A stretch of DNA of 64,000 nt from an uncultured Clostridiaceae bacterium (lineage in GTDB: Bacteria > Bacillota > Clostridia > TANB77 > CAG-508), in the NCBI GenBank assembly GCA_949902805.1, contig CATLDI010000001.1:1369-65368 (forward strand). The letters are read 5' to 3'. This document shows positions 33,083-42,171 of this stretch, piece by piece (position 1 is the stretch's first letter; each line of letters begins with the position of its first letter). Below the pieces are notes generated by a model. It worked only from the letters and a program-made list of their open reading frames with translations, was not told where the DNA came from and did not search any database. A program made the translations under genes and the position numbers.

Positions 33083-33763
33083 TTAATTTATTGCTATATC
33101 TTTAACATTAGTGTTTTGCTTTTTATATATTTTAAACATTTTGTCATTTATCATATTTATTATTTTAGCATAAATGTATAGCTTAAAACTATCTATATTT
33201 GACAATTTCTTTTTGGGTTTGTATTTTACTTTGTGCTCAGCGGTTGCCCAAAAGTCCATTAGTTGTGTTCTTATTTGTATTTCTACTTTTATATGTATTA
33301 TTTCTTCTTTTATTTTTACTGGCATTTCTACTATTATATGATAAGCTGAATAGCCACTCTTTTTTGCCTTTTTTATATAGTCTTTTTCTTTTAATATTTT
33401 TATGTCTTTTTGATTGGCTATAATATTTCTTATTTTATAAATATCTTCTTTATAGTTGCATACAATTCTTACTCCAGCAATATCATTAATGTTCTGAATC
33501 ATATTTTCATAATTAATTTCTATTTTCTTCTTTCTCATTTTTCCAGCTATGCTTTCTGGGCTTTTTATTCTTGATGTAATATTAGTTATTACCTCATATT
33601 TGTAATGTTCATTTAATAATTGTTCTAAATGTGTAAATTTTTCTACTGTGTCATTTAATGCTTTTTTATATATTAGCATAATTATTTCAAATTCATTATA
33701 TTCTTTTTTTATTAGTTCATTATTTTCTACCAATTCATTTTCACTTTTTAATATACTTTCCAT
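33083..33763 (-). CDS. small alarmone synthetase (RelA/SpoT-domain GTP pyrophosphokinase, RelQ/RelP-like)
   Basis: 226 aa; DIAGVRIVCNY....KKSGYSAYHIIV. Confidence 0.75.
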   Translation of the reverse strand: MESILKSENELVENNELIKKEYNEFEIIMLIYKKALNDTVEKFTHLEQLLNEHYKYEVITNITSRIKSPESIAGKMRKKKIEINYENMIQNINDIAGVRIVCNYKEDIYKIRNIIANQKDIKILKEKDYIKKAKKSGYSAYHIIVEMPVKIKEEIIHIKVEIQIRTQLMDFWATAEHKVKYKPKKKLSNIDSFKLYIYAKIINMINDKMFKIYKKQNTNVKDIAIN

Positions 33764-36583: not shown

Positions 36584-36807
36584 TCTTCTTTCCCCTTTCT
36601 ATGTTTCAAATTATATATTTTTTCTTAGTTGCTTTCCATCAATTTAAGTTGGAAATTTGTCAACTGATTTTAACATTATAGTGTTTCCAAGTGTTTTGAG
36701 GTTTTTATTTTACGTTTAATTTTAAATTTTCTTTTATCATATTATCCTATTTTATTATAGCATTTTCTTACTTAATTTTTATATTCTAAAGATTTTTCTT
36801 CTAATAA

Positions 36808-37273
36808 TTAAAAATTGCAAGTAATTGTTTTTAAAAAATTATTTTTATTATTTGTAACTACCTTATACATTTTATTCGCTCTTATATATATTTCTTTTTT
36901 ATTTGAATTAATATATCTATATTCTGATGATATTAATTTTTTGTACTTTACATCTTTTTCAGAATATTTCAAAAGATGTATTACATTTATTTCTTTCGGA
37001 ACTGGTAGCATTGCTGAAAATTTAATAATTGCTAATGGGGTATTTTTTCTATCATATATAAATAAAAAGCTAGGATTATTTTTATATTTTTTATAATGCT
37101 CTTTATATGAGTACAATGGCACCAAAATATTCGTAATTTTCTATTTTTAATACTACTCCTAAATATAGTCTACTATGCTCTGTTTCATCTTTATTGTAGC
37201 TTATATGTTTTTCATACTTACTTAAATATTTAATATAATTTTCATCAATAGTATAAAATAATAGTTCTTCCAT
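36808..37273 (-). CDS. ToxN/AbiQ-family type III toxin endoribonuclease; single extra G (about 37122-37123) splits the frame
   Basis: MEELLFYTIDENYIKYLSKYE...YLGVVLKIENYEYF / VPLYSYKEHYKKYKNNPSF...; compares with AbiQ MKKYYIIDNEYIDYLRKFE...YIGILFEIENKTYYVPLTSVKNHW. Confidence 0.65.
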
Positions 37274-37305
37274 TTATTTCCTCTTTCTATTTTTTAATGC
37301 AAAAA

Positions 37306-37330
37306 GGGAGTACACTTTTTAATGTACCCC
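37306..37330 (-). terminator. rho-independent terminator between toxI-like repeats and toxN
   Basis: minus strand GGGGGTACATTAAAAAGTGTACTCCC + TTTTTGC, the canonical type III TA arrangement. Confidence 0.65.
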
Positions 37331-37334
37331 CAAT

Positions 37335-37440
37335 AATTTAGAACAGCTCATTTATAAGGCTTGAGCTTTACCTAATTTCATAACGTTCTTTTTTAGGTTA
37401 GAACTTCCTATTAGTAATCACAATAGATTACTCTTCTAGT
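37335..37440 (-). ncRNA. candidate ToxI-like antitoxin RNA: 2-3 degenerate 36-39-nt repeats beginning AGG and ending AAATT
   Basis: AGGAAGTTCTAACCTAAAAAAGAACGTTATGAAATT / AGGTAAAGCTCAAGCCTTATAAATGAGCTGTTCTAAATT; each with internal stem; upstream sigma-A promoter. Confidence 0.4.
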
Positions 37441-37446
37441 ATATTT

Positions 37447-37476
37447 ATTATAATACTATTTTATTCATTATGTCAA
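37447..37476 (-). promoter_or_regulatory. sigma-A-type promoter TTGACA-17-TTATAAT driving the toxIN locus
   Basis: consensus -35 and -10 with 17-bp spacer. Confidence 0.6.
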
Positions 37477-37584
37477 TACAAAGTTTAATTTTTTGCAATT
37501 TTCTTTTTTTATTTTTTTATTTAATAAGAGCCTAGTACAGAAAACTGGATGCACAATGTGCACCCAGTTTTTTAGGTAGAATTT

Positions 37585-39369
37585 TTAATTATTATTCTGA
37601 TATTCCTGTAACATCTTTGCCTTTTCTTCGTCTGAAAGGCTGTTCCAAGTATCTTCAGTCACATCAGGATTTACTTCGATTATTTGGTTTACATCTGCAT
37701 CGTATGCTGAAGTTCCTTTATCGAGTTCATTTCTTTTTTCCTGTGCTTCTGAAACTGGTGTTGCAAATTGGATGTTGTCAAAGGTTATGATGTCTACTGT
37801 ACCGTTTTTGTCGTCCACATAGGTAATTTGTACTGTGTCGCCATCACGAGTTACTGCAAGTTCTTCTGAAACCATGTATGATGCTGTGAAGATTTTTCCT
37901 TCTTCTCCTTCTACTACTAAGTAGTAATAAGTTGAACCATCTTCTACTACATTTGATATACGCTGAACTTTGCCTTCATATGTGTATCCATATGCTTCAT
38001 CGGAGGCTACTACTTGTGTGCTACTGTTTCTTGCAACAGATTGTATATATGCTCTGCTTGCTTCTGCTAAGCTAGCACCTTTGGCTGCTATACTATAATT
38101 TTCAACATTTACAAATGCAAATGCCTTTAAAAGTCCCTCTTCATCTTTTAGTCCATGGGCGTAGGTAGCTATCCCATTAATATTGATTGGAAATGGCTCT
38201 GTAGACTTATAACCAAAATCAGATACTAAGCCTTCTGCCGATTTCATTGCAGCATTTTCTGTTGCACCACTTATATGGCATATTTGAGCATGTTTGTTGC
38301 GAGTGTTTACCATGATAAAACCTGAACAAGACTCGTCTGTTCCTACACTTGTCATGCCTGTGAAATAGTAACAATCACCATTTACATAGACGGTTAAGGT
38401 TAGGTCTGTTTTTTTAGTCATTTCTGTATTGCCAAACATTGTATTCCAGAAACCATGTATCAGTTCTCCCCAATTGTCGATTTGGTCTTCAATGAACGAC
38501 TTTGGCTGAATGATATCTACCCATTCTGGCGTATCTTCTATTGAATACCAATTTGTTTCGCCAGTTTGTGCATCTACAATTACAACTCCTGTTGCTTCTT
38601 CAGCACTAAAAATTGTATGATTTTCAAAAGTAGTTACTACCCAGTATGGTCTTCCAGAATCATCAATTTCAAACGTATATTCTGTTAAACCTACATTTCT
38701 AAAACCTTCGTTTCGCATATGCCGTTTTAAGTCTTTGCTAAAATATGCTGACTCCTGATAACGAATGTTAATCTTTTCGCCATCTAATTCTGTTACAAAG
38801 TTCACTTTGTTGGGATTTGAAGCAGATACAGTAATGTATCCCGGTGTAGCTCTATTTTTGTTCCATTTCCAAAAGCTTGTATGCTCAAGAGGTACAACAA
38901 ACATAATCTCACCATTTACCTCCTGAATTGCAGCATCTCCTAATTTTATTCTGGAGCCTAAAGCAATATCTTCGCCGATTTTCTTATCAGCCTGCTTATT
39001 GGCTAATGCTTCATCTACAATTGGAATTTGTGAAGTATCAATTTGTTTAATCATTTCATTAAACTCTACTTCTTCTACTTCTCCAATTTGTTGCTGCTTT
39101 GTCATAGCGTTAAACGCTCTACTTCCTGCAATTCCTCCTAATCCAAGAACTACAATTACAATTACAACACCTACAACTTCTATTATTGCTGCAACTCCAA
39201 AATCTGAAACCCACATAGCAATATTTGCTATTAATGTAACTAGGCATATGCCGATGAATAAAAAGCCGCTTGCATATGCTATTGATAATGGTGGAAGCCA
39301 TAACAGATACAGTACCCACATTATTACTACTGAAAGAACACTTACAACTAACTTACCTACTTTTTCCAT
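37585..39369 (-). CDS. large membrane-anchored extracellular protein, unknown function; composition somewhat GC-richer than neighbours
   Basis: 594 aa; N-terminal TM segments; in-frame CGG at about 38731 read as sense. Confidence 0.45.
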   Translation of the reverse strand: MEKVGKLVVSVLSVVIMWVLYLLWLPPLSIAYASGFLFIGICLVTLIANIAMWVSDFGVAAIIEVVGVVIVIVVLGLGGIAGSRAFNAMTKQQQIGEVEEVEFNEMIKQIDTSQIPIVDEALANKQADKKIGEDIALGSRIKLGDAAIQEVNGEIMFVVPLEHTSFWKWNKNRATPGYITVSASNPNKVNFVTELDGEKINIRYQESAYFSKDLKRHMRNEGFRNVGLTEYTFEIDDSGRPYWVVTTFENHTIFSAEEATGVVIVDAQTGETNWYSIEDTPEWVDIIQPKSFIEDQIDNWGELIHGFWNTMFGNTEMTKKTDLTLTVYVNGDCYYFTGMTSVGTDESCSGFIMVNTRNKHAQICHISGATENAAMKSAEGLVSDFGYKSTEPFPININGIATYAHGLKDEEGLLKAFAFVNVENYSIAAKGASLAEASRAYIQSVARNSSTQVVASDEAYGYTYEGKVQRISNVVEDGSTYYYLVVEGEEGKIFTASYMVSEELAVTRDGDTVQITYVDDKNGTVDIITFDNIQFATPVSEAQEKRNELDKGTSAYDADVNQIIEVNPDVTEDTWNSLSDEEKAKMLQEYQNNN

Positions 39370-39651
39370 GCTAAAATCCTCCTACGTTGTTTGCTTGGTT
39401 TTTAGTTACTTGTGAAATTCTATCCTCCTTTTTTATTTTACTTAAAATAAATTTTTTAAACATGTTACTTTAAAAGTATAGCATATTTTATGGAGACTTG
39501 CAATAGGTTATTGACTTTTTCAGCTTTTTTGCGGTTGTACTCAAAAATCTCTATTTTGTTGCAATTATTTACTTGACATTTTACATAATAGATGATATCC
39601 TCATATCGTCACTTTATAAATAATCTTTTTAAAATTTTAAGGAGGTATACT

Positions 39652-40764
39652 ATGAAACAGATTCATTCTTTTGTGCTTACAGGTGGACCTTGTGGTGGAA
39701 AAACTTCTGGCTTATCTATTATTGAGCAGGAACTTGGCAATCGGGGGTATTACGTTTTAGTTGTTCCTGAAACAGCAACTGAACTTATTCCTACTGGTAT
39801 TAGGCCTTTTGGAAATTCTTTAAATAACTTTGATTTTCAGCATGTTCTTTTAGAAAAACAATTATTTAAGGAAAAACTTTATAAAGATACAGCTAATCGC
39901 TATATTCCATCAAATAACATTGTCATTCTACATGACCGTGGAATTATTGATAATAAAACTTATATGACACCTGGCGAATTTCAAACACTTCTCTATCAAT
40001 TCGATATGAATGAAGTATTAGCAAGGGATAGATATGATGCTGTGTTTCACCTTGTAACTGCTGCTAATGGTGCAGAAGAGTTTTATACTTTAGCTAATAA
40101 TGTTTCTAGAACAGAAACACCTGAACAAGCAAGAGAATTAGACAGAAAAGGTATTGCAAATTGGACTGGTCACCCACATTTGCGAGTCATTGATAATTCA
40201 ACTGATTTTAAGAAAAAGATGTCACGACTTATGAATGAAATTTATTCATCTCTTGGTGTTCCTGTTCCTATTGAAGTTGAACGTAAATACTTAGTTTTTC
40301 GGCCTGATTTAGATATTCTTTCTAAATATGTTGACATTACAACAGTAGATATTGTTCAATCATATCTTACTTCTGACAATGGTAAAGAACGCAGAATTAG
40401 GCAACGTGGACAGGATGGTAATTTTTCTTATTACATTACTGAAAAGCAGGAAACTTTTGGTATTGAACGTCCTGAAGTTGAAAGAAAAATTTCTGAGAAG
40501 GAATATCTTTGTTATCTTTCACAGATTGACCCTTCTCTCAAACCTATTGTAAAGAAACGTGTTTGCTTTGTTTACAAAGCTCAATATTTTGAACTTGACT
40601 TTTTCAATTTTTCTACTGATTATGCTTTAATGGAAATTGAGCTAACTGATAAAAACAGCCTTGTAAACTTACCAAGTTTCATTAATGTTTTAGGTGAAGT
40701 TACTGACAACCCTAAATATAGGAATCATGCACTTGCTAAAACTCAGGCATTTCCTTCTTGCTAA
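39652..40764 (+). CDS. P-loop nucleotide-kinase-like ATPase fused to CYTH (triphosphate tunnel metalloenzyme) domain
   Basis: LTGGPCGGKTSG Walker A; C-terminal ERKYLV...EIEL CYTH signatures; AGGAGG RBS before ATG 39652; two in-frame CGG (39742, 40300). Confidence 0.65.
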   Translation: MKQIHSFVLTGGPCGGKTSGLSIIEQELGNRGYYVLVVPETATELIPTGIRPFGNSLNNFDFQHVLLEKQLFKEKLYKDTANRYIPSNNIVILHDRGIIDNKTYMTPGEFQTLLYQFDMNEVLARDRYDAVFHLVTAANGAEEFYTLANNVSRTETPEQARELDRKGIANWTGHPHLRVIDNSTDFKKKMSRLMNEIYSSLGVPVPIEVERKYLVFRPDLDILSKYVDITTVDIVQSYLTSDNGKERRIRQRGQDGNFSYYITEKQETFGIERPEVERKISEKEYLCYLSQIDPSLKPIVKKRVCFVYKAQYFELDFFNFSTDYALMEIELTDKNSLVNLPSFINVLGEVTDNPKYRNHALAKTQAFPSC

Positions 40765-40851
40765 TTTAACTGTTTCGTATTTTATTTATACAAAAACCCA
40801 AAAGAATGTACTACATCTTTTGGGTTTAATATTCAATAAGTTTTTTTAATT

Positions 40852-41010: not shown

Positions 41011-42171
41011 TTATAATATATTTTGTGCAAGTTCTTTCATTTGCTCTTCGTTTTCTTGGCTCATTGTTGTTTTTATATGAACTATTGGCTCTATTATTGT
41101 TATATCTTTCATTTGCTCTAATAGTTCTTTCATATTTTTGGCAGCAGCTGGTGCCCATGAGCCGTTTTCTATAATTGCTACTGTTCTATTTTGATAGTTC
41201 TTATGTTTTAAATGTCTTAGGAATTTTTCCATGTATGGGAACAAGCCTGCGTCATATGTTGGACATGCTAGTATCATTTTGTCGTATCTGAAAGCGTCTT
41301 CTATTACTTCTGCCATGTCTTCTCTTGCTAAGTCTGATGTTATTACCTTCTTGGCTCCCGCTTCTATTAAAATTTCTTCTAGCCTTTCTACTGCTTTTTT
41401 TGTATTTCCATGTATTGAGTTATATGCTATTAATATTCCTTCATCTTCTGGTTTATAACTACTCCATATATCATATTTATTAATATAGTAGCTTAGGTTT
41501 TCTTTTAGTATTGGTCCATGTAGTGGGCATATTGTTTGTATTTCTAAATTTGCTAGCTTTTTTAGTAATGCTTGTACTTGCATGCCATATTTTCCTACTA
41601 TGTTAAAGTAGTATCTTCTCGCTTCACATGTCCAGTCTTCTTTTACATCTAGGCTTCCAAATTTTCCGAAGGCATCGGCTGTAAATAGTATTTTTTCTGT
41701 TTCTTCATATGTTACTATTACTTCTGGCCAGTGTACCATTGGTGCCATATAGAATTTTAGAGTGTGTTTCCCTATGTTTAGCGTATCTCCTTCTTTTACT
41801 ATAACTTGCCTATCACTTAAGTCTATTTCGAAAAATTGTGGTAGCATTTTGAAGGTTAATGCATTTCCTACTATTTTCATATTTGGATATTTTTCTGCTA
41901 ATCTCTTTATGCTTGATGAATGGTCTGGCTCTAGGTGTGATACTACTAAGTAATCTATTTGTTTGCCATTTAGTTCTTTTTCTAGGTTGTTCCACCATTC
42001 TTCTTGCTTTCTTTTATCTATAGTGTCCATAACTACTATTTTTTCATCTTTTATTATATATGAGTTGTATGATATTCCATTTGGTATTATATATTGACTT
42101 TCGAATAAGTCTAAGTCTTTATCATTTACACCAATGTATTTTATGGAATCTGTTACTTTGTGTTTTTCCAT
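41011..42171 (-). CDS. flavodiiron protein (FprA-type O2/NO reductase: metallo-beta-lactamase-like + flavodoxin-like domains)
   Basis: 386 aa; HLEPDHS di-iron motif, C-terminal flavodoxin fold. Confidence 0.8.
   Translation of the reverse strand: MEKHKVTDSIKYIGVNDKDLDLFESQYIIPNGISYNSYIIKDEKIVVMDTIDKRKQEEWWNNLEKELNGKQIDYLVVSHLEPDHSSSIKRLAEKYPNMKIVGNALTFKMLPQFFEIDLSDRQVIVKEGDTLNIGKHTLKFYMAPMVHWPEVIVTYEETEKILFTADAFGKFGSLDVKEDWTCEARRYYFNIVGKYGMQVQALLKKLANLEIQTICPLHGPILKENLSYYINKYDIWSSYKPEDEGILIAYNSIHGNTKKAVERLEEILIEAGAKKVITSDLAREDMAEVIEDAFRYDKMILACPTYDAGLFPYMEKFLRHLKHKNYQNRTVAIIENGSWAPAAAKNMKELLEQMKDITIIEPIVHIKTTMSQENEEQMKELAQNIL

Follow-up and report, generated by a model that had tools for sequence, protein, structure and literature searches.

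Does the minus-strand segment between positions 37476 and 36772 of an uncultured clostridial contig encode a working type III toxin-antitoxin system, or the remains of one? The segment lies in the window, which is the whole 64-kb stretch of DNA analysed here (G+C content, 28%), and it contains, in order, a promoter, a 5' stem-loop, two ToxI-like units, a terminator, a ribosome-binding site and an ORF of the ToxN family. A first-pass annotation had proposed a ToxN/AbiQ-like type III locus on this strand, with the order promoter, repeat RNA, terminator and toxin, and both the identity and the order are borne out, the identity by matches to Pfam, PADLOC and PDB entries. Its further suggestion of a candidate abortive-infection module does not hold, because the frameshift in the toxin gene is fixed, two more damaging changes are present, and the toxins of the nearest relatives were lost independently. 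The locus is very probably a chromosomal toxIN cassette of the ToxN/AbiQ family whose toxin gene has decayed to a pseudogene and whose promoter, antitoxin units and terminator are intact in sequence. Because the lesions prevent the synthesis of full-length ToxN, the locus cannot act as a toxin-antitoxin or abortive-infection system. Systems of this kind are already well known in gut Clostridia, and the window holds a decayed member.

The toxin gene is present as two minus-strand ORFs in different frames, one of 56 aa (37273-37103) and one of 105 aa in the +1 frame (37125-36808). Dropping one G from the GG at 37123-37122 joins them into a stitched protein of 154 aa, which matches the Pfam family ToxN_toxin (PF13958) over its full length with 131 bits (E = 4e-38; the cut-off is 25 bits) and the PADLOC AbiQ model with 118 bits. 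The HMM search that had been proposed as a check is thus positive. The stitched protein also matches four solved chains, the best being ToxN_Bt (4ATO, E = 1e-18), followed by ToxN_Ec (7D8O), ToxN_Pa (2XD0) and AbiQ (4GLK). At E <= 1 the protein matches no Pfam family other than ToxN_toxin, and CptN and TenpN are thereby excluded as identities. NCBIfam contains no match for the stitched toxin.

The active-site residues of ToxN are K33, T52, S53 and K55 (PMC8860590). The window encodes R35, Y54, S55 and K57 at these positions, but R35, S55 and K57 are split between different fragments. Arginine at the first position is also found in E. coli clusters 4 and 5 (PMC8860590). The Thr52 position is Tyr throughout the gut-Clostridia subfamily and Leu in AbiQ, so it is variable within the family and does not represent a lesion.

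The full ancestral toxN frame occupies 36772-37273 of the minus strand, from an ATG at 37273-37271 to the ancestral stop at 36774-36772, and corresponds to a protein of 166 aa. The 154-aa ORF described earlier is therefore correct as a stitched frame and incorrect as a full length, since it ends at a premature stop. Three lesions are found in the ORF. An extra G had been reported at about 37122 as breaking the toxin frame, and the GG at this site (37122-37123) is confirmed as a +1 insertion in codon 51, just 5' of the PLYSYK active-site motif, at a site where homologues carry one G only. In the HSRPY motif, codon 36 (37166-37168) has changed from CCA to CTA (P36L), at a position that is Pro in 18 of 18 aligned homologues. 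Finally, codon 155 (36808-36810) has changed from AAA to TAA (K155*), with loss of the conserved C-terminal LLEEK segment. Homologues read CNFKLLEEKS and extend about 12 residues beyond this stop, and all four solved ToxN/AbiQ chains contain a CxF-x-LLEEK motif. Beyond the TAA, the old frame of the window still reads LLEEKSLEYKN*. The window branch carries 7-9 nonsynonymous and 5-6 synonymous changes, compared with 15 and 18 on the deeper branch, which suggests mild relaxation. Because the ratio is just mildly relaxed, inactivation may be recent and is probably not ancient.

The leader begins with a promoter made up of a -35 box TTGACA (37471-37476) and a -10 box TATAAT (37447-37452), which together match the consensus at 12 of 12 positions and are kept in all related loci. 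No other 12-of-12 match occurs in the region, and matches of the 9-of-12 type are as frequent as in shuffled sequence. The sigma-A promoter that had been placed at 37447-37476 is accordingly retained, with the correction that its spacer is 18 nt and not 17 nt. The consensus match implies that the leader is probably transcribed from this promoter.

The 5' stem-loop of the leader RNA (AGUAAUC-loop-GAUUACU, 37413-37432) is seen in the minimum-free-energy fold. Two of the 7 bp of its helix show compensatory changes (alignment A3, RNAalifold), and the stem-loop probably acts as a 5' stabiliser. An intrinsic terminator occupies the interval between the array and the toxin gene (37301-37331) and consists of GGGGGUACA...UGUACUCCC and a U-run. 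A rho-independent terminator had been annotated at 37306-37330; it is confirmed as an 11-bp G+C-rich stem whose hairpin spans 37331-37306, with the T-run after it. Two such sites are found in the region, compared with 0.2 expected, and the terminator is kept in relatives, with one compensatory pair (alignment A3). The toxN ribosome-binding site, AGAGGA (37279-37284), is read from the sequence and corresponds to GAGG in relatives. The window leader folds with a z-score of -4.15 relative to shuffled sequence and forms four hairpins, namely the 5' stem-loop, one in each unit, and the terminator. Applied to whole leaders, RNAalifold joined AGG in one unit to CCU in the following unit; this pairing is an artefact that arises from the repeats, and the whole-leader result was used solely for the 5' hairpin and the terminator.

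The candidate antitoxin consists of two units. Unit 1 (36 nt, 37374-37409) has the form AGG-AA-GUUCU-AA-CCU-AAAAA-AGAAC-GUUAUGAAAUU and belongs to the degenerate first unit type; its S2 stem, GUUCU/AGAAC, pairs, and an orthologue is present in about 45 loci. Unit 2 (39 nt, 37335-37373), with the form AGG-UAA-AGCUCA-AG-CCU-UAUAAA-UGAGCU-GUUCUAAAUU, is the sole full unit remaining, whereas relatives have two. The unit 2 pattern occurs once in the window, compared with 0 expected chance matches, and a search of the 64-kb window for a further ToxI unit elsewhere found none. The first-pass annotation had counted two to three degenerate repeats of 36-39 nt, each with an internal stem. Two units of 36 and 39 nt stand, and their S2 stems are supported by pairing and by compensatory changes; the supposed third is the separate 5' stem-loop (37432-37413). 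Conservation of the repeats in relatives, which had been suggested as a check, is found, because the units are orthologous to those of about 45 loci.

The two units are about 67% identical to each other. In the window, Tandem Repeats Finder does not report the array, and finds A/T-rich micro-repeats upstream of the promoter only, so the array would not be recognised as ToxI by the usual operational definition. The same program does report the three-unit array of the relative L003. Taken alone, the two units of the window are weak evidence; they are validated by three-unit homologous loci and by covariation.

Covariation was scored on 51 distinct units (alignment A1) for an H-type pseudoknot, ((((..[[[[[[.)))).......]]]]]]. 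Standard pairs are present in 93.4% of alignment cells, compared with 82.6% in shuffles and 31-52% in slid controls. The covariation score of the whole structure is 0.344, which none of 500 shuffles reaches (0.181), and slid controls score at most 0.138. Helix S2 is 92% paired and shows two-sided changes at four of its six pairs (UA/AU, UA/CG, CG/UA and AU/UA), and this helix is demonstrated. Few events lie behind the covariation, which comes from four stem variants across paralogous unit types. Helix S1, AGG(U)/(G)CCU, is 96% paired and is plausible, but its changes are one-sided only, so covariation does not prove the pseudoknot itself. Covariance analysis of the repeats and comparison with known RNA families had also been proposed as checks. 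The S2 covariation agrees with the proposal, and a match to an Rfam family does not materialize: no antitoxin RNA family was returned for the window locus at E <= 10 or for five relatives at E <= 1, the matches in these scans being chance terminator-like ones and one tRNA.

In alignment A1, the units are joined by (G/A/U/C)AAAUU followed by AGG. ToxN_Ec cleaves within GAAAU (PMC8860590), and by analogy, cleavage would occur in the A-rich tail at the junction of units. The layout of GG, S2 5' strand, CC, A/U loop, S2 3' strand and A-rich tail also occurs upstream of distant ToxN genes (L015-L019 and L065-L066), whose products are 31-35% identical and whose arrays are near-perfect.

A search of 5.8 billion proteins yielded 176 homologues of the window toxin. 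The 120 that were listed are 67-86% identical to it, and nearly all are 164-184 aa long. Genome and metagenome scans provided about 50 alignable loci, mostly from bins labelled uncultured Clostridium, Clostridia or Clostridiaceae. Homology to the window at the nucleotide level begins at about 37478-37498, just upstream of the -35 box, and ends at 36752-36779, at the ancestral stop. These bounds define a conserved unit that is a promoter-to-stop cassette of about 720 bp, found at 14 genome-derived loci and about 35 metagenome-derived loci. The genomic contexts of the cassette differ; at L070, for example, it is flanked by ABC-transporter genes and a TGT gene.

Together, these relatives form a gut-Clostridia ToxN subfamily (P0001-P0120; L001-L014, L020-L062 and L070), with 67-86% protein identity to the window and a cassette that aligns at 76-93% nucleotide identity between the -35 box and the stop codon. 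In most relatives the same 5' stem-loop precedes three units and the toxin, at 165-173 aa, is intact; the window differs in having two units and in that its toxin is dead. The S2 stems of the relatives are GUUCU/AGAAC in the degenerate unit 1, AGUUCA/UGAACU in unit 2 and UGCUUA/UAAGCA in unit 3.

Toxins are intact at about 40 of the 50 loci of the subfamily, and those of the closest relatives of the window are each dead by a different lesion. L013, which is 93% identical to the window, has an 11-bp deletion in the toxin gene. In L014 the gene has an ATA start, an insertion of about 113 bp and further damage, and in L020 unrelated sequence replaces everything after codon 31. Elsewhere, L059 has a 1-nt deletion that is 2-3 nt away from the insertion in the window, L058 also has a 1-nt deletion, and L012 has a truncated ORF with a 1-nt deletion and, like the window, Leu at the Pro36 position. 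L060 and L061 look broken, and these may be assembly errors because the indels sit in homopolymers. Toxin inactivation is therefore recurrent and independent, with at least seven different lesions across relatives, and this repeated loss is relevant to the decay of toxin-antitoxin and abortive-infection cassettes and to the question whether antitoxins outlive their toxins.

Among solved structures, the best match is to ToxN_Bt (4ATO) of the ToxIN system of Bacillus thuringiensis pAW63 and B. mycoides pBWB402, with 71 bits for the window protein and 91 bits for the intact homologue P0001. The order of the locus is the same, and the ToxI_Bt-type array of pBWB402 (34 nt x 3.1) has the unit topology of the window, GG, S2 5' strand, CC, loop, S2 3' strand and A-rich tail, with an S2 stem that covaries between copies. 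The differences are that ToxI_Bt has 34-nt units in 2.9-3.1 copies whereas the units of the window subfamily are 36-40 nt, that its junction is an A5 run in place of (G/U)AAAUU followed by AGG, that its active-site triplet is TS..K in place of YSYK, and that its toxin is at most 38% identical to the window protein. The pAW63 and pBWB402 systems are plasmid-borne, whereas the window locus is chromosomal and its toxin gene is a pseudogene.

AbiQ/antiQ of Lactococcus lactis pSRQ900 (4GLK) belongs to the same Pfam and PADLOC family. AbiQ shares with the window subfamily an xSYK active-site motif and a CDFKLLE.K tail, and the antiQ array is also short, at 2.8 units. The AbiQ protein is distant in sequence (48-60 bits), and it is a proven plasmid-borne Abi system, whereas the window locus is unable to make toxin. 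The ToxIN systems of Pectobacterium atrosepticum pECA1039 and E. coli 680 (2XDB and 7D8O) are of the same family and have a 36-nt unit that, like those of the window, begins with AGG and has a junction containing GAAAU, which is the sequence cleaved by ToxN_Ec of E. coli 680 (PMC8860590). In ToxIN of the P. atrosepticum type, the terminator sets the ratio of toxin to antitoxin (PMC3401426), and the terminator of the window cassette may by analogy have had this role. These ToxN proteins match the window protein with 49-53 bits only, their Lys33 is Arg in the window, and their arrays are composed of near-identical repeats (5.5 units in P. atrosepticum), in contrast to the two diverged units of the window.

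What is known of the family suggests how the cassette most likely works in relatives that are intact. The consensus promoter would direct transcription of the 5' stem-loop and then of three ToxI-like units, as expected for the family. Each unit could fold as an H-type pseudoknot composed of AGG, the S2 5' strand, CCU, an A/U loop, the S2 3' strand and an A-rich tail. Because of the terminator, only a fraction of transcripts would reach toxN by read-through. ToxN would presumably cut the array at the A-rich junctions, GAAAU or UAAAU followed by UAGG, and the processed units would keep ToxN inactive until the supply of RNA fails, for example during phage infection. In the window, the +1 frameshift at codon 51, P36L and the stop at codon 155 leave no full-length ToxN, and the output would be at most a terminated RNA of about 130 nt with one degenerate and one full ToxI unit.

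It is possible, though we consider it unlikely, that this RNA is an orphan antitoxin kept by selection, with the promoter and ToxI units serving as a functional small RNA against ToxN from phages or plasmids or from a paralogue in the genome. All leader elements are intact in sequence upstream of an ORF with three lesions, and the window and L013 are separated by 3 differences in 203 leader sites (1.5%) and 23 in 451 ORF sites (5.1%; Fisher p = 0.03), with 7.1% difference in the neighbouring flavoprotein gene. However, each lesion is confined to its own lineage, which means that an intact toxin protected the leader until recently, and this protection alone can explain its conservation. A general claim that leaders are under stronger constraint than their surroundings fits the comparison of the window with L013 and fails elsewhere: between L014 and L020, both of which have dead toxins, the leader is 5.6% different and the flanks 3-6%, and between L013 and L014 the module is 87% identical and the flanks 91-93%. 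Units are also decaying in other dead loci, as in L058, which has a broken stem and a lost unit, and L012, which has a deletion in a stem. A search of the 64-kb window did not reveal a second toxN.

A related proposal is that, in this gut-Clostridia subfamily, the loss of one ToxI unit precedes and promotes the repeated, independent loss of the toxin, after which an orphan, still-expressed ToxI RNA may persist as immunity against an incoming cognate ToxN; this, too, we regard as a tentative idea that is probably wrong. One full unit is missing from the window, L013 and L014, whereas L020 and L070 of the same clade have three. The window and L013 share the contraction and differ in their toxin lesions, so the contraction came first. 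Toxins are dead in four of the five loci with two-unit arrays (the window, L013, L014 and L058, with L044 intact), compared with about 3-5 of 30 loci with three units, a small and phylogenetically structured sample for which Fisher p = 0.004-0.01 is uncorrected for phylogeny. Because neutralisation of AbiQ needs at least 1.8 units (PMC5086642), a link between array contraction and toxin loss is conceivable.

Decay of the toxin gene also has to be weighed against a live abortive-infection system in which the extra G is an error of sequencing or assembly, or is overcome through programmed +1 frameshifting or slippage during transcription. No damage is seen in the promoter, the array, the terminator or the ribosome-binding site, and the two ORF halves jointly span the whole ToxN domain. 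Nevertheless, this is very improbable. The exact 56-aa frameshift product is recorded on eight contigs, and the six that were retrieved, each from a different sequencing run, share the same gene neighbours and are identical to the window across the cassette (a 741-nt stretch was compared), with the exception of four bases in L022 that lie upstream of the -35 box, on the border of this stretch. The first-pass annotation had left a choice between inactivation and sequencing error, and the identical frameshift in six runs rules out the latter; toxN of the window is a true pseudogene. Among the matches listed from the search of 5.8 billion proteins, no intact version is more than 86% identical, homologues have a single G, and no relative has this frameshift form. 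A bypass at UAU UUU GGU GCC would have no long homopolymer, slow A-site codon or potential for re-pairing, and P36L and K155* would persist after any correction of the frame. Programmed frameshifting is rejected on these grounds, and sister lineages carry unrelated inactivating lesions. Least credible of all, to the point of being negligible, is reassembly of an active nuclease from the 56-aa N-terminal and about 104-aa C-terminal products: both pieces are predicted by gene callers and match the ToxN Pfam family, but the internal TTG or GTG start has no Shine-Dalgarno sequence, the break falls within the strand that bears the active-site motif, P36L and the missing LLEEK tail would remain, and the arrangement is absent in relatives.

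As a decayed toxIN cassette, the locus adds little to general biology, since catalogues of ToxIN loci have included many Clostridia from 2012 onwards (PMC3401426) and the copy in the window is broken. It does provide an example for annotation of a type III locus that is missed or mis-called by standard criteria, because Tandem Repeats Finder is blind to the array, Rfam has no match, and the toxin appears as two separate "ToxN" ORFs. The relatives are a new dataset, namely a well-populated gut-Clostridia ToxN subfamily with position-specific types of antitoxin unit and compensatory changes in their stems. Such diverged units, with their stem compensation, constitute a natural dataset for the rules of recognition between ToxI and ToxN.

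The genes near the cassette encode an HTH_3 membrane protein, a toastrack DUF4097 protein, HlyIII, a small alarmone synthetase of the RelA/SpoT type, a flavin reductase-rubredoxin, a metallo-beta-lactamase/flavodoxin flavoprotein, a DUF2975 protein and an ABC ATPase. In ten neighbouring genes, Pfam and PADLOC found nothing beyond housekeeping or generic domains, and NCBIfam gave no match for the two neighbouring ORFs scanned with it (594 aa and 390 aa). No integrase, phage gene or plasmid gene is found among the neighbours scanned. The locus had been described as lying next to other accessory genes, which is not upheld, because the neighbours give only generic PADLOC domain matches. A defence-island context is rejected as well, the neighbours being ordinary chromosomal genes with generic PADLOC and Pfam domains only. 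Among plasmids and phages, the best relatives of the toxin reach no more than 38% identity. In L013, L014 and L020 the cassette adjoins the flavoprotein gene, and in the window an extra 3.3 kb lies between them.

The ToxI-like repeat units of the related toxIN loci (L001-L062; alignment A1, of 51 distinct units) are position-specific, with a main stem, S2, that differs between units 1, 2 and 3, and these unit types are kept orthologously from locus to locus. Classical ToxI arrays consist of near-identical repeats, whereas in the ToxN subfamily of the window each position has its own unit type. Unit 3 of another related locus, L070, contains a U-G intermediate that links the UA and CG states. 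Two-unit arrays, such as that of the window, go with inactivated toxins: toxN is inactivated in four of the five loci with two units (the window, L013, L014 and L058, with L044 intact), versus about 3-5 of 30 with three (Fisher p = 0.004-0.01, by a calculation that ignores phylogeny).

The extra G that breaks the window's toxN frame (37122-37123) has a close counterpart in the related locus L059, whose toxN carries an independent 1-nucleotide deletion at nucleotide 154 (locus coordinate about 2154). The two indels are 2-3 nucleotides apart, and both fall within UAUUUUGUGCC, just 5' of the active-site motif. L059 lies on a 255-kb contig with a coverage of 24, and a single mismatch separates it from the L045 allele, which is intact. 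The neighboring indels may represent a mutational hotspot or a coincidence. The Pro-to-Leu change at codon 36, in the HSRPY motif, occurs independently in two dead toxin genes, namely those of the window (37166-37168) and L012.

Comparison of loci revealed a 3.3-kb segment (37495-40830) that is present in the window and missing in its sister loci L013, L014 and L020, in which a homologue of the flavoprotein gene found at 41011-42171 in the window immediately adjoins the toxIN cassette. The segment is either an insertion in the window's species or a deletion in the sister lineages. It contains a minus-strand gene (37585-39369) for a 594-amino-acid predicted membrane protein, which has no match in Pfam, NCBIfam or PADLOC, and a plus-strand gene (39592-40764) encoding an AAA_28 and CYTH protein.

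Between the 594-amino-acid gene and the toxIN promoter is a strong palindrome (37535-37577) with T-runs flanking both sides (AAAAAACUGGGUGCACAUUGUGCAUCCAGUUUUCU). This palindrome, which was the source of the region's only Rfam matches, all at chance level, probably acts as a bidirectional terminator, insulating the toxIN cassette.

A gene for a small RelA/SpoT-domain alarmone synthetase (33083-33763) is located 3 kb from the cassette. Its product scores 94 bits against the PADLOC candidate model PDC-S33, a match that probably reflects the shared domain only.
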